From Naegleria gruberi (lineage: Eukaryota), in assembly GCA_000004985.1 (NCBI GenBank), contig GG738861.1: a DNA stretch of 64,000 bases. One strand, given 5' to 3'. Below are positions 1-31,250 of this stretch, piece after piece (the stretch's first letter is position 1; every line of letters starts with the position of its first letter). Position numbers and translations under genes: made by a program. The notes under the pieces are model-generated. The model had not been told where the DNA came from. It saw nothing but the letters and a program-made list of their open reading frames with translations, and did no database searches.

Positions 1-555
1 ACCCAAACCCAAACCCAAACCCAAACCCAAACCCAAACCCAAACCCAAACCCAAACCCAAACCCAAACCCAAACCCAAACCCAAACCCAACCACCCAAAC
101 CCAAACCCAAACCCAAACCCAAACCCAAACCCAAACCCAAACCCAAACCCAAACCCAAACCCAAACCCAAACCCAAACCCAAACCCAAACCCAAACCCAA
201 ACCCAAACCCAAACACAAACCCAAACCCAAACCCAAACCCAAACCCAAACCCAAACCCAAACCCAAACCCAAACCCAAACCCAAACCCAAACCCAAACCC
301 AAACCAAAACCCAAACCCAAACCCAAACCCAAACCCAAACCCAAACCCAAACCCAAACCCAAACCCAAACACAAACCCAAACCCAAACCCAAACCCAAAC
401 CCAAACCCAAACCCAAACCCAAACCCAAACCCAAACCCAAACCCAAACCCAAACCCAAACCCAAACCCAAACCCAAACCCAAACCCAAACCCAAACCCAA
501 ACCCAAACCCAAACCCAAACCCAAACCCAAACCCAAACCCAAACCCAAACCCAAT
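1..555. repeat. Telomeric repeat array (CCCAAA)n, G-strand TTTGGG
   Basis: About 92 tandem hexamers run from the window edge, with four variant units (near 86-99 CCAACCACCC, 214 CACAAA, 304 CCAAAA, 371 CACAAA). The C-rich strand reads 5'->3' at the left edge, as expected for a genuine left chromosome end. Confidence 0.9.
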
Positions 556-1860
556 GTAACTTTCCATGCTTCGCTGGCTGGTAGTAGTAATCTTTGAGAA
601 TGCATATTTGTTAACCCTAATATTACTTGATGCTGTTAAACTAAAATCATAATCGAATTGAATCTTGAAATTACCATTTGCCTTATCAGTCCAGAAACAT
701 TTTGGCTCAGTACCAAGCAATGCCAAGTCATCACCGTGAATCAACTTGGAGCATGGAACTGTATTTGCACTGTATGAAGGTGGAGCAAATAATTTGAGGG
801 TAACTCCATCAAATAGTTCATTAATTTGAGCATAAATTTCATTGACATAGCTTGAATTGAATGATCCAAAGTATGTTGCACAGTCACCTCCAAAGTAGCC
901 ATTCATACAATCATTACAAGAAGTTCCATTCCAGTGGCCATTATCTCTATCTTGATAGCAAGAGCATTTTCCAGTAGCGTCACAATTACCATTACCATTA
1001 CAAGTTGTTTGATCATTACAATACATATCACAATTTGACCCATAGTAATTAGTCTTACACTTTTCACAAATAAATCCATCAAAATTGCCTGTACAAACAC
1101 AAGTATTGTTGCTTCCACAAGATCCACCATTCAAACAAGTTGAGTCGGTACAATATCTCTCAGTACATGTTGTACCAGTGTAGGCAGGATGACATGTATT
1201 ACAATCAGATCCATAATAATGGCCATTTATGTGATCATTAACACATGAACAAGTATTGACATCTACACATTGACCATGTCCTGAACAAACATTGGAGCTA
1301 CTCTTTGAAATAGAATTACAATCAAATTGATCACACTTTTCACCATAGTATCCTGAATCACATGCGCATTTTCCAACACCACTTGTAGAATTGATAAAAC
1401 ATTTACCATGATTTGAACAAACTCTAAAATCAGTACTTGAGTAATAATCTTCAACGCCATTATAAATACCTATACAAAGTAAGTTTTCACAAGAATCACC
1501 TGTAATCTTGACTCCATAAATTGACAAGCAGGAACACTTATCAATATCTAAACAAGTACCTCTTCCTGAACAAACTTTTGCATCCATAGAAGAAATGCCA
1601 TAACAAGTTGTGTCTTGATAATCTTGACAATCTTTACCTCCATATCTCAACTGGCATATACACGTGTCAATATCAGTACAAACACCTCTTCCTGAACAAA
1701 CACTTGGATCGAGTGAAGTTTTACCAAAACAAGTTTTAACCTGACAATCTTTATCTCCATATCCATAAGAGCATTGACAATGACCATCTTCAAAACATTT
1801 GCCCTTTCCACTGCAAACAGTTGGATCATCTTGTCTCTTTCCATTACAACTTGTGATATT
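556..1860 (-). pseudogene. Telomere-truncated fragment of an EGF-like repeat surface-protein paralog (3' end lost to the telomere)
   Basis: My own minus-strand translation is stop-free from the gap to the telomere: ...NTCHPAYTGTTCTERYCTDS...VNTCSCVNDHINGHYYGSDC...SSNVCSGHGQCVD...CMNGYFGGDCATYFGSFNSSYVNEIYAQINELFDGVTLKLFAPPSYSANTVPCSKLIHGDDLALLGTEPKCFWTDKANGNFKI...[14 protein letters not shown]. It is colinear with residues ~512-900 of the 2770..8016 protein at roughly 60% identity. The frame reads straight into the TTTGGG repeats with no stop. Confidence 0.6.
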
Positions 1861-1911
1861 ANNNNNNNNNNNNNNNNNNNNNNNNNNNNNNNNNNNNNNN
1901 NNNNNNNNNNN
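1861..1911. other. Assembly gap (51 N)
   Basis: A run of N sits immediately after a ~180-bp tract that is ~99% identical to 6301-6480. Confidence 0.95.
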
Positions 1912-2512
1912 AATTAGAAAAAAATTAAACTTTAATGGTCCACTTATTATGAAAAATATGTTGGAAGGATCAAAAGAACTCTTTGTTTCTGCAAACAACA
2001 ATATTAATATTATTTCAAAATTTCAATCAATATTTATTTATTTAAATAGTGGAAATGAAAAATTAATGGATGATTTAGGAATAATTTTAAATTTAACAAA
2101 AGACAAAGTAAAACAAAAAGGTTATGTTGGATATCTTTATCATAACTATCCAATGTTATTATTTACTAAGAGAAATATTAATTATTCTTCATTTACAAAA
2201 GAAAATTTTAAAGATGTGAAATTATTTTGTGAAAATTATTTTAAATTTAAAATTGACGAATTCGATGGTATTAATGATTGGTGGAAAACTTTGACCACTC
2301 CTGCAGAATACGATGAAGACAAAGATTTAGACGAACACTGTTTTTGTGGAAACCAATTAAATCTATCCAATAGAAGGACTTGTTGTAATTGTCTTGATGG
2401 TATTTGTGAAGGTTGTGTAATTACAAGATTTAATAATTGTATTTATTGTGAGCCAGAGTGTTTGGAAAAGGATCACTTTAATACTCAAGTAGATGAAGAT
2501 GAAAATCAATAA
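1912..2512 (+). CDS. Partial CDS (5' end in the gap): hypothetical protein with a Cys-cluster C-terminus (CFCGNQ...CCNCLDGICEGC...CIYCEPEC)
   Basis: A 200-codon open frame in very AT-rich DNA has Dictyostelium-like codon usage and a TAA stop at 2510-2512. The Cys spacing suggests a zinc-binding module. The family is not recognised. Confidence 0.35.
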
Positions 2513-2769
2513 ATGGTATTTCAAATAAAGATTGACCTTGAATTATTTGCAACATTTCAAAAGCAATTCTTTTTTAACAAGAAATTGATTGTCTAGACAC
2601 ACTGAATAACAATGAAACTGTGTGTGACTTGTTGTTTACCACCATCACATTAAATTATACAGAATATCAATCATTCATATATTAATTCAGAAGTACAATT
2701 GTTGTCCGAATATTGATTATTCCGAAAATTGCTGAATATTTGGCTAAATAATAACAATAAAGAATAACA

Positions 2770-5700
2770 TTATGATAGGTTGGCATAATAAATCACATTC
2801 GGCACTAGATTAAGCCAAAAAAAAAAACATCGGGAATATTCCTCAACAATCATAGAGTAAATTATTGCAACATATTCCGTGGTTTCCATTGTTATAAATG
2901 ATGGAATGCTGATATTAACAAGAATAGTTTTGCTTACACCTTCCATTTCTGTTGGAATGGATGAAATGACAAAGTCTGAGAGATCGGTGAAATAAATCTT
3001 GTCCACTTGGACAGATAAAGAAGAAGTTTGTAAAACAACCGGATCAGCACTCACAGTTTGTTCCTTAACAACTGAATAAGCAAGTTGTTCAGTCACATTA
3101 ACCAATTGATCGTAAATAATGAGTTGTTCAAGAGTTGATGTAATATTTTCAACAGTCTTTTGCAAATTCTCAACAATTGACAAGACAGTTTGACTTGTTT
3201 CAGTTGAAATTTGAAGATTACTCTTAAGTGCTTGGTCAATTACTTCATTCAAAATAGAAATTGACTTATCAATAACTACTGGAACAATAATTTCATCGCA
3301 CTTAATCACAGAATAAACAGCATAAACAACCATTGATAAAGTTGACTCAATTGAGGTTTCCACTCTTGTAGTTTCCACAGCACTTGTAAGTGTACTAAGA
3401 AGTTGAGTTTGAATTTTAGTAATTGTTTCAGAATCTTGATGTTGAACTTGTGGTAAACTTTGCAACAATTGACTTGTTGAAACGATTGTATTAACAGTTT
3501 GTGAAATACTTTCAATTGGATTACCATCTTGAATGATGGCTAAAATGATTTCGGTTGTTTGATTGGACACCCGTTGCCAAATCTCTTCGACTGTGTTTAC
3601 CACAACTGTTGTCACTGTAATATTTGTGAACATGATTCTTGATTCTCCAGATTGGGTATCAGTCAATTCAACGAACCATTTAACAGGTGCAGATTGTGGA
3701 GTATTTGAACAAGAGGATACCACAGCAGGGATTTTAACAGTATCCTCCTTTGAGACTGGTACTTGAATTTTGATTCCAGTGTCACTATCTACATATCCTT
3801 GGGTGATTTGGATAGTATTTCGTTCATTTTGACAATTTACACATAAAACTTTGAATTCTGTTTCCATGGAAACGCCATTAGAAGGTGTAATACTACATGG
3901 ACATTTTTGTGGTTGAGTTCCTTTTGTAATTGTTGTTGAAATTTCGGTAGAAGCAATTTCAATACCATTAACAATATTAGATTCATTTGTTTGAACATAC
4001 GAAACTTTCAATGCAATACTATTTTCAGTTCCTTCATCAAATTCCCTAGCATCAATAATAATAGCACTTTGTGTATTCTTACTCACAACTTGAACATAAC
4101 TTGAAGTTGATAACATTGTGGTTGTCAAAAAAGAATCTCTTGATTCTATTCTTATAGTTTTACTCTCAGAAACAATGGAGTTGTCAATCTTCCATTCAGT
4201 TTTAATAGAAAGTGATGAATCTGATAAATCCTGTTTTGAGTGAGAGACTTCAATGGAAAACTTCTCATCACTTTTGACAACAGATTTAAAGTCTGGAGAA
4301 ATGTCAATAATATTGAGAATCGGAGGAAAATGAACAAAATTCAAAGTAATAGAACATGAAACCTTTCTTTCTCCTTTTGTAATGCTTAGAGTAAAAGTTG
4401 GTTTCTGTAAAGTTGAAACGGAAAAGTCAGATTTGTCAACATTGAAGAGAGTTAAATGATTCTTGGAATGGAAAGACATTTTGTCAACAACACCATCTCC
4501 ACAATAACCACCAGTTTCAGAATTGACACACGACCATTGCCATAATTCAGATTCGTCTGTGTTGTTTTCTGGATCTTGATAATTGACTTGAATTGTTGAT
4601 GAATAATTACTCACTCTCTTCAATGAAAGATAAAGTGAAAGGTCAGGTTGTTCTGTGTAAATTATCACATAATCGCTCGATGATAAACTTGAATTTTGTG
4701 CAGCTGTAATTGAAATTTGGAAAACGAATTTCCACTTTCCCTTAATGAAACTGTCAATAATCAAATTATTGTAAGCGTCCCTCTTGAATGAAAGGGATGG
4801 ACCCTCAATTTGTTCCCATTCAATATTAATTGTTTCATTCTTCAAATGGTCTGGAATTGTAGTTGTCTTTTTGATATGAACCGACTTTTCAGTTGACTTT
4901 TGTCTAATAATCTTACTACCTGAAATTACCACTGAAGGAACTTGATATTCAATAATTTGGAATGTGAAAATATTAATCGAACTGAATTCATTTGTTACTG
5001 TACTTCTCACAACTAGTGTCAACTTGTAAACTCCCAGTTTTAGTAATCCCTTATCAATCTTAATGGTTGCTTGCTTGTTGGATTTTAAGAAATTTTCAAT
5101 AGTTGAATTGATAGAGTTTCCCTCAATCTTCCAAGTATACTCCAGTTCTTTCCTATCTCCAGAGAAAGAGTATGATCCACTAAATATTATATCTTCTGTT
5201 TCACTGTAAATTCTTTTTGATGACTTCACATCAGCAACTGGACTTTTGACAGTATTTGGAGGCATTAAATAAATAATAGTGTCATCTATGATGGTTCTTG
5301 TAGAAAAAGCTCCAAGTTTGTTCAATCTTCTTGTAAGTGTAGTAAATAGATTTCTGTTCACTCTAAACTGGTTTCCTATGACTGACGAAGAGTTTAGAGT
5401 AAAATCATAATCGAACTGAATCTTGAAATCACCGTTTGCCTTATTAATCCAGAAACATTTAAGTTCTGTGCCGAATAATGGTTGATCATCTATGTAAATA
5501 AGTTTTGAACATGGAACAGAGTTTGGTAAATAGGAAGGTGGAGCAAATAGCTTAAATATCACACCATCAAAGTAATCCGTAACCTGAGAATAAATTTCAT
5601 TGACATAGGTTGAGTTGAATGATTCAAAATAAGTAAAACAATCGCTTCCAAAGTAACCAGTCTGACACGAGTTGCATGAGCTACCATTCCAATAACCATT

Positions 5701-8700
5701 CTTGGAATCTGAAAAACAAATACATTGTCCATTGGATCCACATTGACCATGTCCATTACAAGTTGATTGACTATTACAATAGACATTACATTGTGATCCA
5801 TAACTATTGGATTTACAAGTTTCACAAATCAATCCAGTAAAGTTTCCAATACAATCACAGCTATTATCAGTTCCACAAGAGCCACCATTCAAGCAAGTTG
5901 AACCAGTACATGTTTTAACATTACAATTTGGACCAGCATATGCAGGATGACAAATGTTACAATCAGATCCAGAATAGAAACCATTAGCACTATCTCTAAA
6001 ACATGAGCAAGTGTTAATTCCAACACAGTTACCATGTCCTGAGCAAACATTTGAGTTATTCTTGGCAATAGAGTTGCAATTAAACATTTCACACTTATCT
6101 CCGTAATATCCCGCAACACAGGAACATCCTCTTGTTGAGCAGTTACCATGCTTTGAGCAAACTCTATAATCATTGCTTGAATAAAAATCTTCAACATTAT
6201 TGTATACTCCTTTGCAAAGTAAGTTTTCACATTCATCACCAGTAATCTTTATACTGACACCGTTTGATGAAAAACATTGACAGGTGTCAATATCAGTACA
6301 AACACCTCTTCCTGAACAAACACTTGGATCGAGTGAAGTTTTACCAAAACAAGTTTTAACCTGACAATCTTTATCTCCATATCCATAAGAGCATTGACAA
6401 TGACCATCTTCAAAACATTTGCCCTTTCCACTGCAAACAGTTGGATCATCTTGTCTCTTTCCATTACAACTTGTTATATTACATTTAGATCCAAAAAATC
6501 CAATTAAGCATTTACATAAATCATTTCCTATACATTCACCTTTTCCAGAACAAACAACTGTATCTTCAAGACTTGAAATGCCAAAGCATTCAAAAGTTTG
6601 GACTGTAACAGCCGCATTCAATGAACAGTCTGCTCCAAAGTATCCAGCTGTACAATTACACTTATTTAATGAAAGACAATCACCATGTCCACTACAGACC
6701 TGTGATGAATTATATTCAACTCCTGAACATGTGTGGAATTCACATTCCATTCCAAAATATCCGACATTACATGCACATTGATCCACTTGAGAGCAATTAC
6801 CACGGTTTAAACAAGCACCATTTAGACCTTTTCCAAAACAAATTGGTGATGAACAATCTACACCTGCCCAATTTTGATTGCACGTACAATTATTTGGAGA
6901 GTTACATTGACCATGTGAGGAACAAACCAGTGATGAGTTTGAAAGAATATTGAAACATTTTGGGAGAGCACACCAATCTCCTCCGTACATAGTGTTGCAT
7001 TGACAAATACCACCCACACAAGTGCCATTAGATGAACATACTGATGGGTCATCCTTTGAAATGCCATTACATTTGAGTAGTTGACATTGGTTTCCTTCGA
7101 AATTAGGAGAACAGGAACATGTATCAACACCAGAACATGTTCCATGTCCAGAACAAACTGATGTTTCGTTTGACAATTTTCCAAAGCAATATGGGTATTG
7201 ACATTGTGGACCTCCATAGTCTGAGTTACATTGACATGAATCCAATCCAACACATGAACCATGGGAATTGCAAATAGATGAGTCGTTTTGTAAAGTCCCA
7301 TAACATGTTGTAATTGAACAATTAGATCCATAATAATTTGAAGAACATGAACACGAATTATAATCCATACAAATACCATGCCCTGAACAAACACTGGAAT
7401 TGGTTTTTGCTACAAAGTAACAATCAAAATCTTCACAATTAGATCCATAATAATTTGAAAAACATGAACATGAATTAAATGTTGAACATGTACCATATCC
7501 TGAACAAACCTGACTTGAATTAGAAAAGACTCCATTACATGTTGTAATTGAACAATTAGATCCATAGTAATTTGAAGAACATGAACACGAATTATAATCC
7601 ATGCAAATACCATGTCCTGAACAAACACTGGAATTGGTTTTTGCTACAAAGTAACAATCAAAATATTCACAATTAGATCCATAATAATTTGAAAAACATG
7701 AACATGAATTAAATGTTGAACATGTACCATATCCTGAACAAACCTGACTTGAATTAGAAAAGATTCCATTACATGTTGTGACTGAGCAATTGGCACCATA
7801 ATAATTTGATGAGCAGCTACAGGAATTATATGCTGTACAAGTGCCTTGATTAGAACAACCAGTGGTAATAGAGTTTGAATATCCATTACATGTCCAAGAA
7901 GAACAATTTGAATTGAAATAACCAGTTGAACAGAGATTACAATAACCTCCAGCATAATTCACATCACATGCAAGGTAAATTTTTCTGAGTTCATCGATTT
8001 CTGCAATTACCATCAAATTGCTATCGCTGGCAAAAGCTAAGCCTACAAGTGTATTGAACTTGGTATTGGCCAGAGTTTCTCCATCATTAAATGTGCCAGC
8101 ACTATTGCCAGCATATGACGATATTGTGCCCGTGTTAGCATTGGCAGCAGAGGGTGTGAAAAGTTTAAGCGCACCACTGTCAGTGTAGTATACATTACCG
8201 TTGTCGTTTACAAAAAAGTCTTTGATTGATACAGAAGAGGTCTTAATTAAGTTAGTTTAAACATTTGACCCAAAACTTACAGTACAAATTGTTGTAACTG
8301 TTGAAGCTGTGAAAACTTTTAGATAAAAAGTTGAACCGATTTGTTGAAAGTAATATATCTTTCCGTCAGAAGGTCTTATATTAAAAGAAACTAAAAGAAT
8401 TAAAAGAAAATGTCCGATAACTTACATAGTGATGCAATATTTGCTGATGAAGATGCACCATCAGAAGTGGAAGCACCCCCTCCCAAAACAACTTCAATCT
8501 TGCCAGTTAAAGAGTTGATTTTGTAAATGTAACTGTCTAATGCAAAATAGACCTCACCATTGTAATATTTTACATATTTGACAGACTAGAATAAATTGGA
8601 TATTCATTTAATATTCATTCATTTCAATATTATAAAAATACTTACAATAATAGTACAAGCAGTTGGAGTGTTTCCATTAGCACATACTGGTCCAGCTGAT

Positions 8701-13197: not shown

Positions 13198-16100
13198 ATG
13201 GCAATAATACAAAGAAGGACTGCAACAATTGCATCCTTGTTGATTATTGTATTATGGTATTGCTTCTGTACTCAACACAGCATTGAGGCGAGTAACCCAA
13301 AAGTAGTGGGTGTCGTATCAACTATTGGAACTGATCAAGATAATGTGAAGACTTTGTATGACTTTGGACCCGATTGGAATGAAGGTACATACGCTTACTG
13401 GGGTGTTTTCAATGGTTTTCAATCAGGAACAATCTTCTTTAATGGTGACACCACCCCATTATTGGCTGGGTTGAATCCATCCAACTATATGTGTGTGGTA
13501 ATGTATTCGTCAAACAAACCCTCAAATGAAATTGTTCAAAAGGGTTGCCTCTATTCATCAAAGCAATTAGATATATTCTCAGCGACTGCATCAGCATACG
13601 GCTTTTATGTTACTGTTAGAAATTTAGGTTCGGTAGTGATGGCTGAGCAAGAATTTCCACCAGGAACATTCATTACAAGATTAAACCTAGAAGCAATAAC
13701 AGTTGAAAATGGGGCCAAAGTTGTTCATTCCAATGCAACCAATTACGTTGCATGGAGTGGTATGGCACGTTTAGATTTCAAGGAAGCTGATTTTTTGGTT
13801 GTGGTTGGTAATGCTCAATGCTCTCTCTCAAGTCAGGATACTGACAAATTAATCTTTGAAGATTCGTCCGAGTTGACTCTTCCACATACATGCGAAATGA
13901 CTTCTTTCGCTGCTCTATACACTGCAACTTATGATTCAATGACCTTGGGAAAAAAGCAAATGATAGAACAAATTAACCAAAGAAGTACATTCATAAAGAA
14001 GGTTATCAAGTCATCTACTACTTCCTTCTGGGTATATGGTAATTTTGTTGACTATACTTTATTTGATAATGAGAGACGCTATGGAAAACAAGCTCCTTTC
14101 TTTAGTTATTATGAAATTGACCCAAGCAATACCCAACCTTTCACACGGAAACACAGTACGTATATTTCTTCGTTTCAACCAACATACTCGGCTGAAGCAA
14201 ACGATATGAAAATAATTCCAGCTGACGGACAAATTGAAATATACATTGTTGGTTATGTGGAAATACCAAGCTCATTTTTATGTTGCTTCTTGAAGATTGG
14301 TACTGCCGAGCCATATCGAGCTAGAAAGCTAGAAATTGAAGGTGATGTAGTATTTACAGGAATAGATACCAACACAAATACTCAAGAAGTAATCGTTACG
14401 GGTCACTTTGCAGGTACAATTCAAATTGGTTCCACCAAATTGACAAGTAGTGGAGGACGAGATATTGTGGTTGCTGCTTTCAAAAGAGTTACTTTAGATG
14501 CTGTTTGGGCTATTAAAGAAGGAGGCTCAAACGATGATTATTCATATGGAATTAAGAATAATAATAATGAATTCATATCAATTTTTGGCAAACTTGGCTT
14601 GAATCCAAAATTTGATGGTAAGAATGTATCTGTTTCTGTGTCAACTGCATCAAACGGATTCATTGCGCATTTATCAGATCCTAATTATTGTTATGGAATT
14701 GCTAGTAATACTGAGACTGTTTGTAATGGTCATGGTCAATGTCAAAAAGATGGCAGTTGCCTTTGTAGTTCAGGTTTTGGAGATCAGTGTGAATTCCCAA
14801 CTTGTAACGAAATACACTTTAATGAAACAAATGTTTGTAATGGGCATGGTAACTGCACTGATTATGATACTTGTTCCTGTAATGATGGATGGACTGGTGC
14901 TAATTGTAATATACCTGTTTGTTTTGGTGTTAGTGAAGGTGAAAGTTGCAGTCAACATGGTTCCTGCATTTCAAATAATACTTGTCAATGTAATAATGGA
15001 TGGTTTGGAAGTAACTGCTCAATTCATTCATGTAATGGAACAAGTTCACAAGATGAGCAAAATATTTGTAATAATGGCAATGGTATATGTGTATCTGCAG
15101 ATATGTGTTCATGTAACCAAAATTGGACAGGTCAATTCTGTGAAATTCCTAAATGTTTTGGATTGAATTCAAGTGATATTTCAGTTTGTTCAAGTCATGG
15201 GCAATGTATTAATGCTAACACTTGTAGTTGTAATAAGGGATGGTTTGGAGCTGATTGTTCAATTCATTCATGTAATGGAACAAGTTCACAAGATGAGCAA
15301 ATCGTTTGTACTAATGGCAATGGTAAATGTGTATCTACAGATATGTGTTTATGCAATCAATATTGGACTGGACAATTCTGTGAAATTCCAAAGTGTTTTG
15401 GATTACCAGCAAACGATTCAAATGTATGTGCTGGTCATGGTAAATGTCTCTCCCCTGATGTTTGTTCTTGTAATCCTAAATGGTTTGGGGCTAAGTGTAA
15501 TTTCCCATCTTGTTTTGGAATTCCATTTTACAATTCTTCAGTTTGTTCCTCCCATGGCCAATGCATAACCTTGGACACATGCAAATGTCTAGATGGATAT
15601 GATGGAGAAACTTGTTCCTCTCATTCATGCTTTGGTTTTAAATCCAATAATGACTCGAGAGCTTGTACGAATGGTCAAGGAAAATGCACAGGTGCTAATC
15701 AATGTACTTGTTTGGAATCCGAAAGTGGAAGAGCAATAGGTCCACAATGTGAAACGATTTTATGTAAGGCAGGAGTTGATATGTGGTTACCACAAAAAGA
15801 TCCAAAAGTTTGTTCTCAACATGGTATATGTAAATTCAACATGTCAACTGTTGGATGTTTTTGTGAGGAAGGTTACGAAGGGCCAATATGTCAGTATCCA
15901 ATCTGCTATGGAATTTCATCGAATTCAAAGAAAGTTTGCAATGGAGTTGGTAAATGTAATGCTCCAAATAACTGTTCATGTTTTGATAATGATATTGATG
16001 GTCACTTTGTTGGAACAAATTGTGACAAGTGTAAAATTCCATACTCTGGAATTAATTGTACTGTTATTGAAAAGTGTAATGCTACATTGAAATGCAATTC

Positions 16101-19100
16101 ACATGGTACATGTGATGACTATGGTTTCTGTACTTGTTTCCAAGACGAAACTAACGGTTATTGGAATGGAACTAATTGTAATACTTGCAATGATGGATTT
16201 TATGGAGAAGATTGCATGACTCAATTGTCCAATGTACATTTCAATAATGAAGGAAATGGATTACTTTTCCAAATGACCTCTCCAAATCATTTCACATCCT
16301 TAAATGTTGATTGTAACAATTTATTAGATTCTTCAAGTATTTCCTCATTTGGTTCAAATGTAGTTTGTAGATATTCTAATAAGACATCCAATGATTTTAT
16401 TATTGAATTGGGAACTGATAATTCTATTCAAGTTGATCAAGAAATTTTATTGAATAGAAATGTGTTTAATAGAAACAAATTAGGAAATGATTATCAATCA
16501 TTCAAAATTGGAAATGCTGAAAATCCCATTCCACCAACAATTTTAATTTCTCAAAAAACAACATATTCAAGTTGTGAAAATATTCTATTGGATGCAAGTG
16601 AAAGTTATTCCACAGATGGAAAACAAATTTCCTATAAATGGGAAATTGTATCTTCCAACATGATGACACTTCCAAACAATAATTCAAGCAAACTGTCAAT
16701 CACCTATGACAGTATAAATGCTGGAAGTCATACTTTCAAACTGACAACTACAAGCCAAAGTTTGAAAACATCCTCATCCAAGCAAATCACATTCCAAAAG
16801 TTGAATTATGCAACACCTGTCATTTCTATTGAAGGAAGTGACAGCCTTTCACTTTCAACAAGCTCATTGCCTTTGATTGTAAGAAAATTAATCACCTTAC
16901 CTTCTTGTTTACCTTCAAAATCTGAAATTATTGTAAAATGGGAATATTTGAGTGGAACTGGAATGGAATATCAAGTTGACTCTACNNNNNNNNNNNNNNN
17001 NNNNNNNNNNNNNNNNNNNNNNNNNNNNNNNNNNNGATGGTTTGGAGCTGATTGTTCAATTCATTCATGTAATGGAACAAGCTCTCAAGATTTACAAAAT
17101 GTTTGTAATGGAGGAAGAGGTCAATGTATTGACACTGATATTTGCTCATGTAATGAAACATGGACAGGTCAATTCTGTGAAATTCCTAAATGTTTTGGAT
17201 GGAATTCAAGTGATAATTCAGTTTGTTCAACTCATGGTCAATGTATTAATGCTAACACTTGTCAGTTGTAATAAGGGATGGTTTGGTAGTAACTGCTCAA
17301 TTCATTCATGTAATGGAACTAGTTCACAAGATGTGCAAAACGTTTGTAATGGAGGAAATGGTCAGTGCATTGGAACAGATTTGTGTTTGTGTAACCAAAA
17401 TTGGGCTGGTCAGTTCTGTACTATTCCTAAATGTTATGGCGTTATTTCTACAGACGCTACAGTTTGCTCTACTCATGGTAACTGTACTGATATTAATACT
17501 TGCCAATGTAATACAGGTTGGTTTGGTCCATTATGTAGTATTCACTCCTGCAATGGAACTAGTTCACAAGATTTAAAACACGTCTGCAATGGTGGTAATG
17601 GAGTATGCATTCAAATGGATAAGTGTGATTGTAAATCTGGTTGGACAGGCCAGTTCTGTGAAATTCCGAAGTGTTTTGGTTTAGCTTCAACTGATAAAAA
17701 AGTGTGTGCTGGTCATGGAGGTTGCATGAGCTCTGATAAATGCTCTTGTAATAATGGATGGTTTGGAGCTGATTGTTCAATTCATTCATGTAATGGAACA
17801 AGCTCTCAAGATTTACAAAATGTTTGTAATGGAGGAAGAGGTCAATGTATTGACACTGATATTTGCTCATGTAATGAAACATGGACAGGTCAATTCTGTG
17901 AAATTCCTAAATGTTTTGGATGGAATTCAAGTGATATTTCAGTTTGTTCAACTCATGGTCAATGTATTAATGCTAACACTTGTAGTTGTAATAAGGGATG
18001 GTTTGGAGCTGATTGTTCAATTCATTCATGTAATGGAACAAGTTCACAAGATGAGCAAATCGTTTGTACTAATGGCAATGGTAAATGTGTATCTACAGAT
18101 ATGTGTTTATGCAATCAATATTGGACTGGACAATTCTGTGAAATTCCAAAGTGTTTTGGATTACCAGCAAACGATTCAAATGTATGTGCTGGTCATGGTA
18201 AATGTCTCTCCCCTGATGTTTGTTCTTGTAATCCTAAATGGTTTGGGGCTAAGTGTAATTTCCCATCTTGTTTTGGAATTCCATTTTACAATTCTTCAGT
18301 TTGTTCCTCCCATGGCCAATGCATAACCTTGGACACATGCAAATGTCTAGATGGATATGATGGAGAAACTTGTTCCTCTCATTCATGCTTTGGTTTTAAA
18401 TCCAATAATGACTCGAGAGCTTGTACGAATGGTCAAGGAAAATGCACAGGTGCTAATCAATGTACTTGTTTGGAATCCGAAAGTGGAAGAGCAATAGGTC
18501 CACAATGTGAAACGATTTTATGTAAGGCAGGAGTTGATATGTGGTTACCACAAAAAGATCCAAAAGTTTGTTCTCAACATGGTATATGTAAATTCAACAT
18601 GTCAACTGTTGGATGTTTTTGTGAGGNNNNNNNNNNNNNNNNNNNNNNNNNNNNNNNNNNNNNNNNNNNNNNNNNNCCAAATGACAGCTAGACCACTAGT
18701 TGTTAACTTGATCCAAATTGAATCAACAATTGACCAAGTAATAATTGAGATTGAAGAAATTGATTCTGATTTGCAAACTATTCCATTCGAAAGAGAATGG
18801 TCCACCAATAATTTGAATAACAATGACAACATATTACAATATCTATCATCTATCAAGAATAATACATTAACAATTACAAAATCATTAGTGAACGGTGCTT
18901 CTCAATTCGACATTTCATTAAGGTCAAGTAAGGTTTCCAGATATTCCACTTCAACTCTCTCCATTTTATTCCCAGAATCTCCTGAACAAATTCCACCTTC
19001 AATAACACCAGCTAACTCGCCTCCATCAAAATTGAATAAGGGAACTTTATTAAGCGTACAAAGTATTGTTTCGAGTGCAAGTAACAATATTATTAGAGAA

Positions 19101-20900
19101 TGGACAATGAATGGTCAATCTATTCCTTCAGAATTGACAAGAAATATGAGAATGCAACTTTCTGAGTCTGACGAATTAATTTTGGACACATCTTCTTTGA
19201 CAGAAGGTGCAACTTATCAAATTTCTTTCAAAGTTACTAATGTTGATTCTTTGTTATCTGCTTCATTGAATCATTCATTTGTAATCAACAAATCACCAAA
19301 ACCATGTGACTGTCAAGTGTCACCTTTGAGTGGTATTGCAATGACAACAATATTTACTTTCAATTGTCCAAAATGTCAAAACGATCAGAATAGTAATACT
19401 TTTGAATATGGTTTTATTGATGACTTTTCAAAATCCAACTTTCCACTTTCTAAAACAGAAGAATTATATCAAAAACTTCCAATGCCAAATTCTGGAAACA
19501 AATTAGATCTTTATGTCAAGGTAATTGATTCATTGACAGGATCTAGCTCCATAACAACCAAACAAGTTACCATTTCTCTTCCGGTTGTCAAAAGTTTAGC
19601 AGGAATCAAAAAGTTAACAGCCTCATGGAACCAAATAGCAACATTGGCTCCTGTTGGTGATTATCAACGAAGTGTTTTCAATACTGCAACCATTTCTAGA
19701 ACAATGAATTTATTATTTAAGAGTATAAGTTCAAAGAGAGATTTTTGTAATGGAAATGGACAATTTAAAGATGGGAAATGTGTTTGCAATTCTGGATTTA
19801 CAACAAGTAATTGTAAATGGTCCACTGAAGATTTTGAATTTATTCAATCTTTAATTAGAGATTTATTGAATGATTTTATGGGTTCAAGTCAAATCATGAC
19901 AACCGCTTCAGAATCAACAAATAGAAATTACATTACAAATTTATTATTTGGATTGAATTCAATTTCACAAAATTCTGAATATCTTTCTAACCAAATGGTC
20001 AACTCTAGTTTAATTTTATTGAGAGATGCTTTGGTATCAGTTCAATCAAGTACCACCTTTGTTCTGTCTAGAGGAGATTTGGTCAACTTGCAAAATATTT
20101 TGAACTTACAAGAAAATTTAATGGATGGTGAAAAATTATTGGAAACTGTTGAATTATTAGGGCAAGTTTTATTGAGAAATGTTTTAATTGGTCAAATACC
20201 ATTTAAATTTGAAACTAACAGTTATTTGACAGTTTTAAACAAACATTTCAAGAATCAAATGAATGGAATGAAATTCGAAAGTGAGATGGTGAATATCACG
20301 TTACCATGGAACATTTCATCTCTCTTGAAAACTAATTCAATCAAGTCACCAATCAAGTACAGATGGAATATTCAAAAAAATACAGACACCATTGCAATTG
20401 CAAATCAACCTGGAAAGATAATATCAATCAATTCAGTTGTGAATAGTTTACAACTTGATCCTTCACCTCAATCTTATTCGAAATACTTATTCGACATTGA
20501 GATGAAACAATACGACAGTCAGGCAGCTTATGTTTGTGCTAACATTGGATCAGCATCATTGGAAACTGATTGTTCCATTTCTATCAAGAATAACCAAATA
20601 GCAACTTGTGAATGCTCTTCATTAGGATATAATCTTGTAATTCTTGAATACAAATCCATTGAAAATCATGTATCAACCTCCTCTTCATCAAATTCAAATA
20701 TAATTGTCAAAAAACCTCCAACGAGCAATCCATTAATGTGGTTATTATTGTTACTAGTCCTCATTCCACTTACTGCCCTACTAATTGCAGTAATTGTATG
20801 GTTTGTAGTAAAGAAACTGGGTAAAGATAAGAATAATACAAGAAATCCATACATGCAAACACAAGAAAGCAGTTCTACAATTGAATTGAAGCATGTTTAA
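13198..20900 (+). CDS. Giant type I membrane glycoprotein: signal peptide, ~430-aa N-terminal domain, more than 20 EGF-like repeats, Ser/Thr-rich stalk, TM helix and short cytoplasmic tail. One gene broken into three ORFs by two assembly gaps
   Basis: ATG at 13198 begins MAIIQRRTATIASLLIIVLWYCFC. ORFs 13198..17271, 16952..18691 and 18507..20900 share architecture and differ in frame only across the N runs at 16986-17035 and 18627-18676. The C-terminus has a TM segment, PLMWLLLLLVLIPLTALLIAVIVWFVV, followed by KKLGKDK... and a TAA stop at 20900. Confidence 0.7.
16986..17035. other. Assembly gap (50 N) inside an EGF tandem-repeat array
   Basis: An N run flanked by near-identical EGF cassettes. 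Confidence 0.95.
18627..18676. other. Assembly gap (50 N)
   Basis: An N run at the end of a ~700-bp block identical to 15170-15880. Confidence 0.95.
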
Positions 20901-21244: not shown

Positions 21245-21585
21245 ATGTTTCCACAACAAGCTCCACGGATTGTGGTAGAGATAAAACTTGGTAACACAGT
21301 TGCTCAATTGTTTCCAGATGGTAGCTTGAGTAATGGTTCAACCAGTATTACTGATTTCAGCGCAGTTGCACTAAACAAGCAAAACAAGCAAGTATGGGGG
21401 TTTGAAAATGACAAAGTTAAAATATTGTGCAATCAAAACCACGTTTGTAGTTATGGTCAAGTCAACCACTTGATAACAGGCAAGGGATTAAATAGGCTTC
21501 GTTCTCTTTACAATCTCGTAATAACAAAATATCTCCAACAACAGCCAAACATCACCGTTCCCAGAACCAATGCTGGTGACACCAN
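21245..21585 (+). CDS. 5' partial CDS of a hypothetical protein, interrupted by a 1020-N gap
   Basis: An ATG-started open frame of 113 codons runs into the gap. No recognisable domain. Confidence 0.3.
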
Positions 21586-23571: not shown

Positions 23572-26500
23572 TTAAAGCATTAACAAGCACATCATGATTG
23601 AAACCAGTAAGGAAACACTGAACGAAATCATTGCAACGTTGTTGACACGAGCTGAAACCTTTGGAATAAAAGGAGCAGGAGAAGATTTTGGAGAGACAAC
23701 AGGTGTTGGAATAGCCTTTGGTTGAGCAGTTAACAAATATTTGCCAGTTGAAGAGACAGAAACAGTTACAGAGTTACTGGTCTTGGAAATGACTGAACAA
23801 CTGGTTGAGAGTTGATAATTATTGGTTGCTGAATTGTAAACTTGACAATAGACATCATATGCAGAAACCGATCTTGCCATTGTTATATCCTTTGAGGTAG
23901 AGAAGGTCAATTCGGCAATAGAACTTGAACTAGAAACGGTAACTGCAGATTTTTCAGCAAGAGAAATATCAAGAGCATCTGAAACAGAGTTGGTGACTCC
24001 GCCACTTGATGATTTTACCTTAAGAATGAGAGTCTTGTAATTAGAAACAAGATCAGAAAATTTAGCTGCCATTTTGAACTTATTTCCATTAATAATATCT
24101 TGTAAATTATTCAAAGTTGCAATATTGACCTTTCTTGAATAAGTAGTTGTTTGATTAGCAACAATATAGTTGGCTGGAAGGTCAGCAACTGTATCCTTAA
24201 CGAGAGCGCTTGATAAACTGTCATACGTAGCTTGAATATTAGTAATATCAGAATTGGAGAATGATCTCTTTGAAACACCCTTTGCTACAATAAATCTATA
24301 GAATTTATCAGCAGCTTCCTTCGCCTTTGTCAACAGTTCAGTAGCCAATTTAACTTCATCACTCGAAGCAGCATTAGCAGCAGTTTGAGCAAGATTGGTG
24401 ATCATCTTGGAAATAATGTCATCGACAATATATTCCAAACTTGAAGTACCAGAAGAAATCATTGACAATTTAGAGGAGGCAGAGTTAGTATTTTCAGAAG
24501 CAACAGATTGAGCCTTTGCTTGATTGTCCAAATAGGAAAGAATCATATTGGAAGTCAATTTTGCAATTTCAGCTTTTTGCTCAGCAGTTGCACCAGCAAT
24601 AGAGCTAACAACCTTAATGACAGCAGATACGGAAGCAAGGGTTGGTGTTTCCTTCGCAGTTGATTCAATAGAATTCACTGCTTGAGTGGTAGTTGGTTGA
24701 GTAACAGCTACAGAAATTTCAGATTCTGTAAATGCCAACTTGGAATCATAAACTGCAACTTTAAGACGGAGTTGAGAACTGCTTGAAGAAGGTAATTTGA
24801 TTCTTGTAGATCTAGTTTCAGTTCTCTCCGTCAATGCAGTCCAAGAGGATGAAATGTCATCATAATAGAAGAATTGATAGGTAAGTGGCAACTGAGAGTC
24901 TGTCCAACCATTTCCACATTTCAATTCGAATAAGGTACTGAGAGCAACACCAGATTGTGGACTAGCTTCGAAAATACCTCTTGTTGGAGGAGAGTTTACA
25001 TTAACACTTGTTGTAGCAACACCATTCTTTGAACCATCAGTAATATTCAAACTAATAGAGTATGAAGCGCCAGCACTCAACAATGATTTTGGAATCTTGA
25101 TAAAGCTGGAAGTTTGGGTGAGTGATGATAAATCAAACTTATCAGAGAACCAGAAGAAGGTTGGAGATGATAAAACTTCAAGAGAGGAATAGGTCAAATA
25201 CAAATCAGATGATGGGCTAACAAGTGAAAGATCGCTATTAGAAGTAATTGAAGCTCTAATCAAAGTATTCTTTGGAACGGACTTAGCTTTAACAATTAAA
25301 TTAGTTGATGCAGATCTTGATCCCTTAACAACAGTAGCAGTATACTTGTATTCACCAGCAGAGAGGAATGTGGAGAAGGTTCTTTGATTTAAATTTGGAG
25401 AAGAACATGACTTAATGTTGACAATATCAAAACATGTGATAGTGACAGTTTCTGAATCAGACGTACTACTTGGATCAACAACTGCAACAGAGAAATCCAA
25501 TGAATCTTGAGTTGATTGAGTAATGTCAGAAATGTTGAATTGAATAGTCAAATCTTGAGCTACAGCAGTTACCTTGAAAGGAAGAAATGCATCGTTAGCA
25601 TTGTCAGAAACAGCCCTAAGGATAAAGTAATAATCGCCTTCCTTATTAATATCAGTGAAGGATTTACCAATAGCGAATAAATTATTACTAGATTTTGGAG
25701 TTACAACTGATTTAGAGGCTGAAGAAGTATCAACAGAATAGGTATAATCAGTTTGATAATTTCCAGAATAACACTTTGGGAATTTGATGACTGGTGTCAA
25801 TACAATAGTAGATCCAATCATGTAAGTCACAGAAATACCTTCACTGAGTGATAGAGTTGGAACTGGATTGCTAACAACATTCACGGTAACACTTGATGTG
25901 GCAACTTTAGAGAATGCAGTTGTGACAGTAACTTGAATAATGAATGATCCACCAGAAATTGCACTCAATGAAGAGGAGCTGAAATCGACAATAGCGCTTG
26001 AAGTTTTAACACCACTCAAGTAAGTATTCAAAGCATTCATTTCACCAACAGTTGGACCGTTAGTGACATACCAAGAGAATAACAATGCACGACGATCTGA
26101 TGAAACTGATCCAGAAGCATCCAAATATAGAGTATCACACTTGGAAACAGAGCTCTTATCAGAAACTAGATTAACACTTGGAGGAAGTGCAACAAATGTA
26201 CCAGAAGAAACTGTAACAGACAATGTTTCAGCGCTTCCTGGGAATTTGAATAATCTCAAAGAATTACCTGGTACAATATTTGCACTGGTTCCTAATATAA
26301 TTTCCAAAGAGGAAGTTGCAGAATTCAAAATACATTTAGCATCAGAACCTATCAATGATAAATCAGAGCTAGAAATGACATCTGAACAATCTGATTGTTT
26401 CAATAAACTTGATTTGACTTCACCAATAATTGACCCACCAGTTGAAGTGAAAACAAAACTATTAGAATTAATTTGGAAATCACAATTGCTTCCAAACCAT

Positions 26501-28425
26501 CCATTCAAACACTTGGCACAATTACTGGAAGCATCAAAGTTTCCATAACAAGTACATGAGCCATCATTATTACAGTAACCTTTAGAGGAACAATTACTAA
26601 CACTATTACAAGTAATTGAGCAACTGGAACCAACAAATCCACTAGCACATTGATCACAATATGTACCAACAAAGTTACCTTCACAAACACATTTCAAATT
26701 AACACAATTACCTCTGGAATTACAAGTTTGAACTCTATCACAAACTGGAGTGTTACAATTAGCTCCTGAATAATCAAGTGAGCAGCTTGAACAAGATTTA
26801 CCATCATTGTAATTAATTGGACATGAACACTTATTAGGAGCTGAACAAATACCACGAGATGAACAAACACTAGAGCTTGACTTGTCAATTCCATAACAGC
26901 TAAACGTTTGACAAGCTGTACCATTATAACCTTCAGAACAATGACAGATATTTGGAGCAATACATGAACCCTTTCCAGAACAAACTCTATTATCGGTAGC
27001 ACTAATTTCAAAACAAACGGGAATATCACAATTATCACCAACAAAACCATCAACACATTTAGAACAAAACTTGGATGAATCAAAGTTACCATTACAAGAA
27101 CAAACATCCTTTGAAACACATGAACCTCTATACGAACATCCTCCTTGAGATTCACTCAATCCATTACAAGTAGTGTATTGACATCTATCACCAGTGTAAC
27201 CACTATTACATTCACAAGTATTTGGGGCAGTACAATTACCTTGTTTGTTACAACCAGATGTACCTGTTTGATTGTTACAAAGTGGAATAGTACAATCACT
27301 ACCAGTATATCCACTACCACAAACCATAACACTACACTGAGAACCAGTAAAACCTGGATAACAATCACATTGATCTTTTCCTATACATTTACCCTTACTT
27401 GAACAAACAGATGAAGAATTACTCAAAGTATTAAAACATCTTGTTTCAGAACAAGATGGACCTTCCCAACCACTCTTACATGAACATTGATTTAGTGATG
27501 AACAGTTACCATTAGATGAACAAACACTTGATTGATTGGCCAAAATACCAAAACATGAAGTAATTTCACACAACTTGCCATAGAATCCACTATTACATTG
27601 GCAAGTATTTGGACCAACACATTGACCATTTCTTGAACAAACAGTTTGATTGGAGTTGGTTAAACCAGAACAAGAATATGTTTGACATTCAGAACCAATG
27701 TAACCACTCTTACATAAACAGCTATCAACAGAAACACAAGTTCCTGATCCAGAACAAACAGATGAATCAGTAAAATTCTTTCCAAAACATTGATGAATCT
27801 GGCATTCTAATCCACTGTATCCATTATTACATTGACACATATCTTGAGAAATACAAGTACCTTGATTACAAGCTTCAGCTCTTGGCTTAGTGAAACATGT
27901 GATATTCTTTGAGACACAAGTATTTGGAGCAATACATGTATCGTATTGTCCACAGGATTGAGTTTCGTTAGCCAAATAATTATTGCAAATTGGCATGTTA
28001 CAAACACCAGCAGGTCCATAACCTGATTTACATTCGCACTTGTCAAAATCACTGCAGATACCTTTCGAAAAACAAACTTGAGGTGATTGAGAATCGATGC
28101 CATTACAAGTTGTAAAAGAACAATTGTCTCCGTGGTAATTTGTTGAGCAGATACAATCATCGAGACTAGAACATGAACCATGGGATGAACAAACCTTGGA
28201 ATCGTTAGCTGGAGTACCATAACAGGAAGGAATTTCACAGAATTTTCCAATAAATCCATTAACACATATACAACCGCCATCCAGACATGTTCCATTACCA
28301 TTACAGATATTTTCCAAATGAGTAGATCCACATTTAACTGGTTCTGGTTGTGGGGTTTCCGTTGTTGTTTCATTACAGAATGTTCCATTGATATTTGAGT
28401 TACAAATACAGACACCGTTCAACAA
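23572..28425 (-). CDS. C-terminal ~1600 aa of a giant surface glycoprotein: Cys-repeat and EGF-like modules, long Ser/Thr-rich region, C-terminal GPI-anchor-like hydrophobic signal
   Basis: The ORF begins inside a 43-aa repeat unit (CICNSNINGTFCNETTTETPQPEPVKCGST...), so it is not a real N-terminus. It ends ...SARVNNVAMISFSVSLLVSIMMCLLML, which is GPI-signal-like. It is contiguous with 28510..31428 except for two 1-nt homopolymer deletions. Confidence 0.7.
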   Translation of the reverse strand: MLNGVCICNSNINGTFCNETTTETPQPEPVKCGSTHLENICNGNGTCLDGGCICVNGFIGKFCEIPSCYGTPANDSKVCSSHGSCSSLDDCICSTNYHGDNCSFTTCNGIDSQSPQVCFSKGICSDFDKCECKSGYGPAGVCNMPICNNYLANETQSCGQYDTCIAPNTCVSKNITCFTKPRAEACNQGTCISQDMCQCNNGYSGLECQIHQCFGKNFTDSSVCSGSGTCVSVDSCLCKSGYIGSECQTYSCSGLTNSNQTVCSRNGQCVGPNTCQCNSGFYGKLCEITSCFGILANQSSVCSSNGNCSSLNQCSCKSGWEGPSCSETRCFNTLSNSSSVCSSKGKCIGKDQCDCYPGFTGSQCSVMVCGSGYTGSDCTIPLCNNQTGTSGCNKQGNCTAPNTCECNSGYTGDRCQYTTCNGLSESQGGCSYRGSCVSKDVCSCNGNFDSSKFCSKCVDGFVGDNCDIPVCFEISATDNRVCSGKGSCIAPNICHCSEGYNGTACQTFSCYGIDKSSSSVCSSRGICSAPNKCSCPINYNDGKSCSSCSLDYSGANCNTPVCDRVQTCNSRGNCVNLKCVCEGNFVGTYCDQCASGFVGSSCSITCNSVSNCSSKGYCNNDGSCTCYGNFDASSNCAKCLNGWFGSNCDFQINSNSFVFTSTGGSIIGEVKSSLLKQSDCSDVISSSDLSLIGSDAKCILNSATSSLEIILGTSANIVPGNSLRLFKFPGSAETLSVTVSSGTFVALPPSVNLVSDKSSVSKCDTLYLDASGSVSSDRRALLFSWYVTNGPTVGEMNALNTYLSGVKTSSAIVDFSSSSLSAISGGSFIIQVTVTTAFSKVATSSVTVNVVSNPVPTLSLSEGISVTYMIGSTIVLTPVIKFPKCYSGNYQTDYTYSVDTSSASKSVVTPKSSNNLFAIGKSFTDINKEGDYYFILRAVSDNANDAFLPFKVTAVAQDLTIQFNISDITQSTQDSLDFSVAVVDPSSTSDSETVTITCFDIVNIKSCSSPNLNQRTFSTFLSAGEYKYTATVVKGSRSASTNLIVKAKSVPKNTLIRASITSNSDLSLVSPSSDLYLTYSSLEVLSSPTFFWFSDKFDLSSLTQTSSFIKIPKSLLSAGASYSISLNITDGSKNGVATTSVNVNSPPTRGIFEASPQSGVALSTLFELKCGNGWTDSQLPLTYQFFYYDDISSSWTALTERTETRSTRIKLPSSSSSQLRLKVAVYDSKLAFTESEISVAVTQPTTTQAVNSIESTAKETPTLASVSAVIKVVSSIAGATAEQKAEIAKLTSNMILSYLDNQAKAQSVASENTNSASSKLSMISSGTSSLEYIVDDIISKMITNLAQTAANAASSDEVKLATELLTKAKEAADKFYRFIVAKGVSKRSFSNSDITNIQATYDSLSSALVKDTVADLPANYIVANQTTTYSRKVNIATLNNLQDIINGNKFKMAAKFSDLVSNYKTLILKVKSSSGGVTNSVSDALDISLAEKSAVTVSSSSSIAELTFSTSKDITMARSVSAYDVYCQVYNSATNNYQLSTSCSVISKTSNSVTVSVSSTGKYLLTAQPKAIPTPVVSPKSSPAPFIPKVSARVNNVAMISFSVSLLVSIMMCLLML

Positions 28426-28429
28426 GTTC

Positions 28430-31250
28430 CATTATAATAGCAATTATTTTCTTCAACGGTTGATCCACAGTTTAATTGGTTCAGTGGAACAGAGTATTCT
28501 GGTGTGCTTTCATTGCAAATGTTCCGTTAACGTTGTATTGCAAATACAAATACCATTTACACATGTTCCGTTACCATAACAGGCATTTTCTTCCAATGTT
28601 TCACCACATTTAATTGGTTCAGGATGTGGGATAACTGGTTCTGTATTTGTTTCATTGCAATATGTACCATTAATGTTTGAATTACAAATACAGACACCAT
28701 TAATGCAAGTACCATTTCCATAACAAATATTTTCATATTCAGTGATACCACATTTAACAACTGGTTCTGGTTGAGGTGTTGGAGTTTCAGAAGTCTCATT
28801 ACAGAAGGTTCCATTAACGTTTGTATTACAAATACAAATACCATTTACGCATGTTCCATTTCCATAACAATTATTTTCCTCAATGGTTGTTCCACATTTA
28901 ATTGGTTCAGGTTGTGGAATTATTGGTTCAACAATGGTTTCATTACAGAAAGTACCGTTTGAGCCACCTAAACATGAACAAATACCATTCAAACAAGTTC
29001 CATTTCCATAACAATTATTTTCTTCAACGGTTGATCCACATTTAATTGGTTCAGGTTGGGGAATTGGAGTTTCTGGAGTTGTTTCATTACAGAATGTTCC
29101 GTTTACATTAGAGTTGCAAATACAAATACCATTTACACATGTTCCGTTACCATAACAGGCATTTTCTTCCAATGTTTCACCACATTTAATTGGTTCAGGA
29201 TGTGGAGTAACAGGTGCTGATGTTGTTTCATTACAATATGTACCATTAATGTTTGAATTACAAATACAGACACCATTCAAACAAGTTCCATTTCCATAAC
29301 AATTATTCTCATCTTCAGTGAAACCACATTTAACAACAGGTTCTGGTTGAGGCTCATGACTTGTTTCATTACAGAAGGTTCCATTAACGTTGGTAATACA
29401 AACACAAATACCATTCATGCAAGTTCCATTTCCATAACAATTATTTTCTTCAATGGTTGATCCACATTTAACTGGTTCAGTTGGAATTTGAGGTTCTGAA
29501 GCAGTTGTTTCATTACAGTATGTTCCGTTCATACCCTCAACACAGATGCACAATCCATCAAGACATGTGCCGTTACCATAACAATTGCTTTCTTCCTGAG
29601 TTGTACCACAAATAATTGGTTCAGGTTGTGGAGAATCAGAATTTGTTTCATTGCAATATGTACCATTTACGTTTGAATTACAAGCACAGACACCATTGAT
29701 GCAAGTTCCATTTCCGTAACAGTTGTTTTCTTCCATGGTTGATCCACATTTAACTGGTTCAGGATGAGGAATTGGAGTTTCAGGAGTTGTTTCATTACAG
29801 AATGTTCCGTTTACCTTTGAATCACAAACACAAATACCATTTAAACAGGTTCCATTACCGTAACAGTTATTTTCTTCCAATGTTTCACCACATTTGACAG
29901 GTTCTGGTTCTGGAGTAACTGGTTCTGTAGTTGTTTCATTGCAGAATGTGCCATTAACATTCTCAAAACATACACACAAGCCATCAACACAAGTACCATT
30001 TCCAAAACAGTTATTTTCTTCTTCGGTCGAACCACATTTAACTACTGGTTCTGGTTGAGTTGGATCTTGAGTTGTTTCGTTACAGAATGTACCATTCACG
30101 CCAATAAAACAAATACAAACACCCTCAATGCATGTACCGTTACCATAACAAGTATTTTCTTCTATAGTTTCACCACATTTGACAGGCTCAGGAACAACTG
30201 GATCTGGAGATGTTTCGTTACAGAATGTACCATTAATATTCTCGTTGCAAACACACAAACCATCAACACATGTTCCATTTCCGTAGCAGCTATTTTCTTC
30301 TGTTGTTTCGCCACATTTAATTGGTTGAGTTGGAACTTGAGGTTCAGTAGGATTAGTTTCGTTACAGAATGTACCATTAACATCTTGATTACAAACACAG
30401 AATCCATTTACACAACTTCCATTGTTGTAGCAATTATTCTCTTCCAAAGTTTCACCACATTGTAAAGGTTGTGGAATTTCAGGTTCTATATTTGATTCAT
30501 TACAGAATGTACCATTTGCGCCTTCTTTGCAAATACAGGAGCCACCAATACAAGTGCCATTACCATAGCAGTTATTTTCATCTTCTGTAAAACCACATTT
30601 AACTGGCTCTGGTTGAGTTGGGATTTCAGGAGCTGTTTCGTTACAGAAAGTACCATTAGCGCCTTCAATACAAACACACAGTCCATCAAGACATGTTCCA
30701 TTACCATAACAATTACTTTCTTCCTGAGTTGTACCACAAATAATTGGTTCAGGTTGGCTGGGAACTGGACTGGTTTCGTTACAGAATGTACCATTACTAC
30801 CTTCATTGCAAGTACAAAAACCATTCTCACACGTACCATTGCCATAACAATTATTCTCTTCTTCTGTAGTACCACATTTAACCAATTCTGGTTGTGGTTC
30901 CATGCTGAAGGTTTCATTACAAAATGTACCATTAACATTCTCGTTACAAATACACAAACCATCGACACATGTACCATTACCATAACAAATATTTTCATCT
31001 TCTGTGAAACCACAGTTAACTGGTTGAGTAGGGACTTGTGGTTCTTGAGTTGTTTCATTACAGAATGTACCATTCACACCTTCAATACATATGCAGAAAC
31101 CATCGACACATGTACCATTACCATAACAATTTTGTTCTTCCAATGTTTCACCACAAGTGGTAATGGTATCATTACAGAATAAACCAATGAAACCTTCTGA
31201 ACATTGACAAACACCACGAGTACAATTACCATTAGAATAGCAAGATTGTT
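28430..31250. repeat. Tandem array of about 24 x 129-bp coding repeats (43-aa Cys module)
   Basis: The periodicity is visible in both the nucleotide and the protein sequence. Units are roughly 70-95% identical. Confidence 0.85.

Follow-up and report, generated by a model that had tools for sequence, protein, structure and literature searches.

The scaffold end and its gene cluster

The stretch of DNA analysed here (hereafter the window) comprises the first 64 kb of a 507,294-bp scaffold of Naegleria gruberi strain NEG-M. It has a GC content of about 33%, uses the standard genetic code and contains open reading frames (ORFs) of up to 1748 codons. A tract of telomere-like hexamers occupies its left edge and is followed by a piece of a gene for an EGF-type surface protein, an assembly gap, the nearest paralog of that gene and further members of the same family (Table 1).

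Table 1. Features of the window, in order of position.
Feature	Position	Strand	Basis or remark
Telomere tract (TTTGGG)n	1..554	minus	about 92 units, 4 variant units
Telomere/gene junction, GTTACA/TTGGG (gene sense)	553..560	minus	sequence inspection
3'-truncated EGF-REJ surface-protein gene copy	555..1860	minus	435 codons; 5' part also missing at contig end
191-bp identical run	1664..1854	minus	matches 6284-6474 of the neighbouring paralog
Assembly gap, 50 N	1862..1911	.	apparently a placeholder size
187-aa ORF with Cys-rich C-terminus (…CFCGNQLNLSNRRTCCNCLDGICEGCVITRFNNCIYCEPEC…)	1949..2512	plus	divergent from the fragment, convergent with the paralog
Nearest paralog, main ORF of 1748 aa, EGF repeats and REJ	2770..8016	minus	Pfam, alignment
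Partner of the 191-bp identical run, inside the paralog	6284..6474	minus	alignment
Family member with signal peptide, EGF repeats, PKD and REJ	13198..20900	plus	two 50-N gaps inside
EGF and REJ ORF with C-terminal hydrophobic anchor	23572..28425	minus	Pfam, hydrophobicity
EGF-only ORF	28510..31428	minus	Pfam
Protein EFC45734, exact match	35073-35975		protein comparison
Protein EFC45735, exact match	36367-37116		protein comparison
Actin EFC45736, exact match	40478-41611	plus	protein comparison

The hexamer array at the scaffold start has a period of 6 and is reported by Tandem Repeats Finder as 92 copies of the unit ACCCAA with 98% matches. Allowing at most one mismatch, the 12-mer CCCAAACCCAAA occurs 90 times, always on the plus strand and always within positions 1-555, compared to a mean of 0.55 occurrences in shuffled sequence; at the same threshold, no interstitial copy was found outside 1-555 in the 64-kb window. 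The G-rich strand of the tract runs 5' to 3' towards the scaffold end, which is the orientation needed for a left chromosome end, and the repeats remain near-perfect up to the junction. TTTGGG has been proposed as the telomere repeat of N. gruberi from genome data (Fulneckova et al., 2013; PMC3622300). Given an outward-oriented array of 92 CCCAAA units at the very start of the scaffold, in a motif that agrees with the published candidate, we infer that the tract represents a physical chromosome terminus. Variant units are found at 80-95, 208-225, 298-315 and 364-381 (CCCAAC-CA, CACAAA twice and CCAAAA), the first of which shifts the phase of the array; these could be real variants or Sanger read errors.

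Next to the telomere, about 31 kb (positions 1-31428) consist almost entirely of large genes for EGF-REJ/PKD surface proteins. None of these family members was found among the N. gruberi proteins of the searched database, and the EGF-REJ family seems to be unannotated in this organism. A tandem array at 28289-31155(-), built of some 15-20 copies with a period of 138-144 bp and 67-70% identity, corresponds to the EGF units of ORF 28510-31428. Further assembly gaps are located at 16986-17035 (50 N), 18627-18676 (50 N) and 21585-22605 (1021 N). Both of the 50-N gaps fall within one and the same EGF-PKD-REJ gene, next to an EGF tandem array of 240 bp, and the repeat number of that gene is therefore uncertain.

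The nearest paralog of the terminal fragment had been described as intact in the original prediction, a description that requires revision. ORF 2770-8016 is not the whole gene: minus-strand ORFs upstream of it reach approximately position 10271, where a signal-peptide-like start is present. At the other end, the ORF stops about 200 residues short of a metagenomic relative (P0030, described below) and is devoid of the C-terminal anchor region, and no anchor-coding or transmembrane sequence is recognisable in the 258 bp after the ORF end. It is possible that this paralog has lost its C-terminus, is a secreted protein or has become a pseudogene.

Farther from the telomere, three predicted proteins match N. 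gruberi entries exactly (Table 1), which identifies the organism. A ciliate macronuclear (Paramecium-like) origin of the DNA is ruled out by these matches together with the standard genetic code and the very long ORFs. Two actin genes, at 32846-33979(-) and 40478-41611(+), lie inverted 6.5 kb apart. Their protein products are 100% identical; 26 nucleotide differences separate the two coding sequences, and the flanks are almost the same over about 100 bp either side. Another actin-like ORF, the third and a divergent one, is located at 48814-50001(-). A tRNA-Gly(GCC) at 56593-56664(-) is the sole tRNA gene detected in the window. Exact-protein look-ups for an independent copy of the locus, done with EFC45734 and with ORF 42738-44138, both returned no record. 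A Logan contig (L001, from SRR3922091) was rejected as such a copy because it carries a different actin copy, with 96.7% identical DNA.

The open frame and the missing half

The junction between the telomere and the gene is, in gene sense, ...GAAAGTTACA ending at base 555 and continuing as TTGGGTTTGGG...; with a longer context it reads ...AGCATGGAAAGTTACA followed by TTGGGTTTGGG.... Base 555 is the last unambiguously non-telomeric base. The T's at 554-553 are assignable to either side, and the possible overlap of the junction with the repeat is 0-2 nt (TT). An overlap of at most 2 nt is compatible with telomerase priming and is uninformative, speaking neither for nor against it. Inspection of the junction shows neither linker nor vector-like sequence, and the repeats abut the coding sequence directly, with no subtelomeric element between them.

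On the minus strand, the frame stays open between 1860 and 555, spanning 1306 nt of non-telomeric sequence (435 codons), and runs on into the repeats as (GF)n without encountering a stop; no stop exists in any of the three TTTGGG frames. This measurement bears out the original prediction of a minus-strand frame of about 430 codons that reads into the hexamers without a stop. The inner limit of the frame at 1860/1861 does not belong to the gene itself but is the contig edge before the 50-N gap at 1862-1911. In the other two sense frames of the fragment, 9 and 60 stops are present. An open frame by chance is ruled out by the strong homology described below and by composition-preserving shuffles, 0 of 2000 of which stayed open.

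Pfam domains in the fragment are EGF_2 (3e-14), EGF_Teneurin and EGF_TEN. More specifically, the fragment consists of tandem teneurin/tenascin-type EGF repeats followed by a post-EGF module (…YFGSFNSSYVNEIY…KCFWTDKANGNFKIQFDYD…), which is common to the fragment, the neighbouring paralog and P0030, a relative of 1412 aa encoded on a metagenome contig. That contig (L002; ENA ERZ929261, k127_25426, positions 1-5299) is Naegleria-like, with 33% GC. Upstream of its EGF units lies a repeat region (…IYFADNKLCNIQKL…LYIADRRSIKFLNY…) that resembles window ORF 8800-9639 (…IRKL… repeats), and no Pfam match was obtained for either of these two.

Alignments to these relatives define what the fragment retains and what is missing. 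The fragment is 60% identical to ORF 2770-8016(-) over 421 residues (range 60-63%), and homology to family members persists to within about 10 codons of the junction. The alignment to the paralog stops at residue 895 of 1748 in ORF numbering, in agreement with the earlier placement of the break at the equivalent of residue ~900. P0030 is 55% identical to fragment residues 70-423, with a match that reaches P0030 residue 403 of 1412. Beyond the junction point, P0030 continues for about 1000 more residues, which include a REJ domain (1.3e-21) and, after it, one transmembrane helix with a short tail behind it. Both the 13198 and the 23572 paralog likewise run well past the junction-equivalent point. 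In total, all four relatives checked extend past it, by about 650-1000 residues, and two of them (P0030 and the paralog at 23572-28425) carry a membrane anchor at the C-terminus. Both the REJ domain and the C-terminal membrane anchor are absent from the fragment, and the telomere is found in their place. The fragment is a truncated derivative and not a complete member of the EGF-REJ type I membrane-protein family, for which 'surface protein' is a fair label.

A full-length orthologous allele was not found by protein searches or by a scan of JGI metagenomes, and the sequence that would have been deleted distal to the junction is therefore known only through the paralogs and P0030. Matches in the protein search with the fragment did not exceed 39% identity, and no N. 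gruberi model was among them. With the REJ half of the paralog as query, a single metagenomic match was obtained and no N. gruberi protein like the missing half. The scan of JGI metagenomes found no relatives of the fragment.

To date the truncation, we compared the fragment with the neighbouring paralog, excluding the identical tract described below. Values of dN 0.23 and dS 1.19 were obtained, that is a dN/dS of about 0.19. Because of this low ratio, the fragment can be considered to have been constrained as a gene for nearly all the time since duplication. Single-base changes in the fragment create a stop in 5.9% of cases, and no stop is present in its 435 codons. The probability of observing zero stops is 0.10 at 3% neutral divergence and 0.02 at 5% (0.02 or lower beyond). 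Since an absence of stops is improbable under neutral divergence, the constraint would have been lost recently. This selection signature suggests that the truncation is recent, and both the dN/dS and the stop-codon expectation argue against an old, decayed pseudogene. Because no TTTGGG frame has a stop, any transcript of the fragment would be a non-stop mRNA. The copy is presumably a young pseudogene that is not expressed.

The junction evidence comes from one 1861-bp contig (1.86 kb) of the 2010 Sanger draft assembly. Telomere and fragment together form this contig island, tied to the rest of the scaffold by scaffolding alone across the 50-N gap. Because of the gap, the 5' half of the fragment and its placement are uncertain. 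The other 50-N gaps sit in EGF tandem repeats, which suggests that 50 N is a placeholder and not a measured size.

The inner end of the island contains a 191-bp run that is identical to a segment of the neighbouring paralog (Table 1). Within this tract dS is 0.08, compared to 1.19 across the rest of the fragment. Past the tract the alignment is abruptly lost, the fragment having one extra EGF unit (a 117-bp offset), and the remainder of the fragment is only 71% identical to the paralog at the DNA level. The tract is probably an inter-paralog recombination or gene-conversion tract that extends into the gap, and it is the likely reason why the contig breaks there. A mis-overlap of a paralog read is an unlikely source of the tract, since the sequence beyond it fails to align.

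Because the inner end of the island is identical to sequence 4.4 kb away, mate-pair placement could have been misled; its placement next to position 1912, as a same-orientation tandem copy, is plausible. Sequence of the interval 1912-2800 is not duplicated within the window. On the far side of the gap, the divergent 187-codon ORF begins at 1949, 38 bp past the gap, and has no Pfam match and no exact record in the protein collection. If the gap is truly about 50 bp, the position of this ORF implies that the fragment is truncated on both sides.

A proposed terminal deletion and its alternatives

With moderate confidence, we regard a terminal deletion followed by de novo telomere addition as the best reading of this sequence. 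The original prediction had proposed the same event under the name of chromosome healing. Much of its basis stands, namely the repeat and its orientation, the direct junction, the open frame and the greater length of the relatives. Its weaknesses are the dependence on a single draft contig and the oversight of the 5' assembly gap, of the 191-bp identical tract and of an attachment made by scaffolding only.

The sequence of events would be as follows. The scaffold start would be a real chromosome end of N. gruberi NEG-M, whose outermost ~31 kb carries clustered genes for EGF-REJ type I membrane proteins. A double-strand break in the outermost family member, or terminal erosion into it, would have removed the original tip. 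Telomerase would then have put TTTGGG repeats straight onto the exposed 3' end (...GTTACA, with a TT match of at most 2 nt), resulting in a stable, shortened chromosome and a terminal gene copy deprived of its REJ region, membrane anchor and stop codon. An exchange of sequence between the 5' part of the terminal copy and the neighbouring paralog would also have taken place at some time, and this would account for the identical 191 bp as well as for the break in the contig at that site. The repeat tract would have been made by telomerase and not by recombination.

The alternative that survives best, although unlikely, accepts the junction as real and gives it another history: a partial segment of the gene, truncated on both sides, would have been copied to the end by ectopic recombination or break-induced replication, its donor possibly being another already healed end. 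Fifty N is the apparent minimum of the assembler, and a small gap leaves no room for the 500 or more upstream residues and a promoter, all the more with a divergent gene beginning 38 bp past the gap. In addition, the 191-bp tract points to past recombination with the neighbour. Set against this, break-induced replication or telomere capture normally imports the subtelomere of the donor, and both are disfavoured because no donor subtelomeric DNA lies between the gene and the repeats. Furthermore, the selection signature is that of a gene constrained until recently, and the occurrence of the other 50-N gaps in repeats makes it probable that the size of this one is a placeholder.

Quite unlikely is an artefactual junction, in which repeat and gene would have been joined by chimerism of a plasmid clone or by faulty assembly of the contig end while the real gene continues elsewhere. 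Such an artefact would be in keeping with a junction located within a tiny 1.86-kb contig island at a gap, in a region whose EGF repeats broke the assembly at least twice more, and with the fact that the protein search and the scan of JGI metagenomes found no independent data set containing the fragment. However, the repeat has the orientation of a true end, which a random chimera would give half the time, and several overlapping Sanger reads are needed to cover 554 bp of repeat and the adjoining 1.3 kb of unique sequence. The junction is also free of visible linker or vector-like sequence. Nor is a simple mis-overlap probable at the other end of the contig, where the flanks are too dissimilar, being 71% identical and unalignable without the 117-bp offset.

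The least probable of the three alternatives is an interstitial TTTGGG array within the gene, at which the scaffold merely stops while the 3' half lies on another scaffold or is unassembled: assemblers cannot pass a 0.5-kb perfect hexamer array, a scaffold end in repeats proves no physical end and the repeat tract is open in the reading frame of the fragment, but there is no other telomere-like 12-mer in 64 kb, interstitial tracts tend to be short or degenerate whereas this one is long and close to perfect as far as the junction, and the protein search brought up no N. gruberi counterpart of the missing half, the last being a weak argument given that the annotation misses the family.

Known healed ends and the place of the Naegleria locus

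The closest known parallel to the proposed terminal deletion is found in Plasmodium. In P. falciparum 3D7, telomere repeats lie inside truncated var genes at four chromosome ends (chromosomes 5 and 6 as well as the two ends of 14), and the hallmarks of these ends are the absence of subtelomeric repeats and a direct fusion to coding sequence (PMC5550746). Breakage and healing also underlie pfhrp2 deletion in Plasmodium (PMC11458181). As in the var genes of 3D7, the Naegleria repeats are fused inside a member of a subtelomeric surface-protein family, which would leave a 3'-truncated pseudogene. The two cases further share the lack of intervening subtelomeric repeats, the presence nearby of chimeric family members from homologous recombination and an event in a long-cultured laboratory clone. 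Unlike Plasmodium, the Naegleria case concerns a heterolobosean with a TTTGGG repeat and an EGF-REJ family, in a free-living amoeba that faces no host immune system. Moreover, the Plasmodium events have been verified by long-read sequencing, by inducing breaks and by comparing the ends with intact ones, whereas the Naegleria case consists of one draft contig. Nanopore data exist for N. gruberi (PMC12695648).

De novo telomere addition at double-strand breaks has been described in Saccharomyces cerevisiae (PMC8012806, PMC10055226), and neotelomeres or terminal deletions are known in humans (PMC4427916, PMC11293586). The mechanism proposed for Naegleria is similar to that of yeast and human: after resection, the end would anneal over a few bases with the RNA template of telomerase, repeats would be synthesised and the distal arm would be lost. 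Yeast events favour TG-rich seeds and hotspots, whereas the sequence upstream of the Naegleria junction (GCATGGAAAGTTACA) is not notably TG-rich.

A further comparison is offered by ciliates. In Paramecium macronuclei, chromosomes undergo programmed fragmentation and telomere addition, with TTGGGG and TTTGGG repeats. The Naegleria locus resembles ciliate macronuclei in having nearly the same repeat and a telomere on non-telomeric DNA; unlike in ciliates, nothing in the window suggests a programmed process.

In the literature on telomere structure or healing in Naegleria, we found only the 2013 motif report and no paper that links Naegleria with telomere healing. The mechanism itself is well known, and what is new is the organism, in which healing is so far undescribed. 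As the mechanism is a textbook one, the gain is incremental. In practical terms, the fragment, as a presumed pseudogene, is one to annotate as such, and the first contig of the scaffold is one to verify.

A broader reading goes beyond a single terminal deletion. Naegleria chromosome ends might be without dedicated subtelomeric repeats and continually remodelled by breakage, healing and ectopic recombination within the EGF-REJ family. We consider such general remodelling distinctly unlikely. If it did occur, it may act as a var-like generator of diversity in a free-living amoeba, and the truncated copy and the 191-bp tract may be footprints of one ongoing process.

If confirmed, the terminal deletion with de novo telomere addition proposed here would give the heteloboseans a first healed chromosome end described at the sequence level. 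Its defined junction would directly support TTTGGG, until now only a candidate, as the functional telomere repeat of Naegleria. It would also mean that at least one Naegleria chromosome end holds an EGF-REJ gene cluster undergoing truncation and inter-paralog exchange, a kind of subtelomeric family dynamics that is best known from parasites and yeasts.
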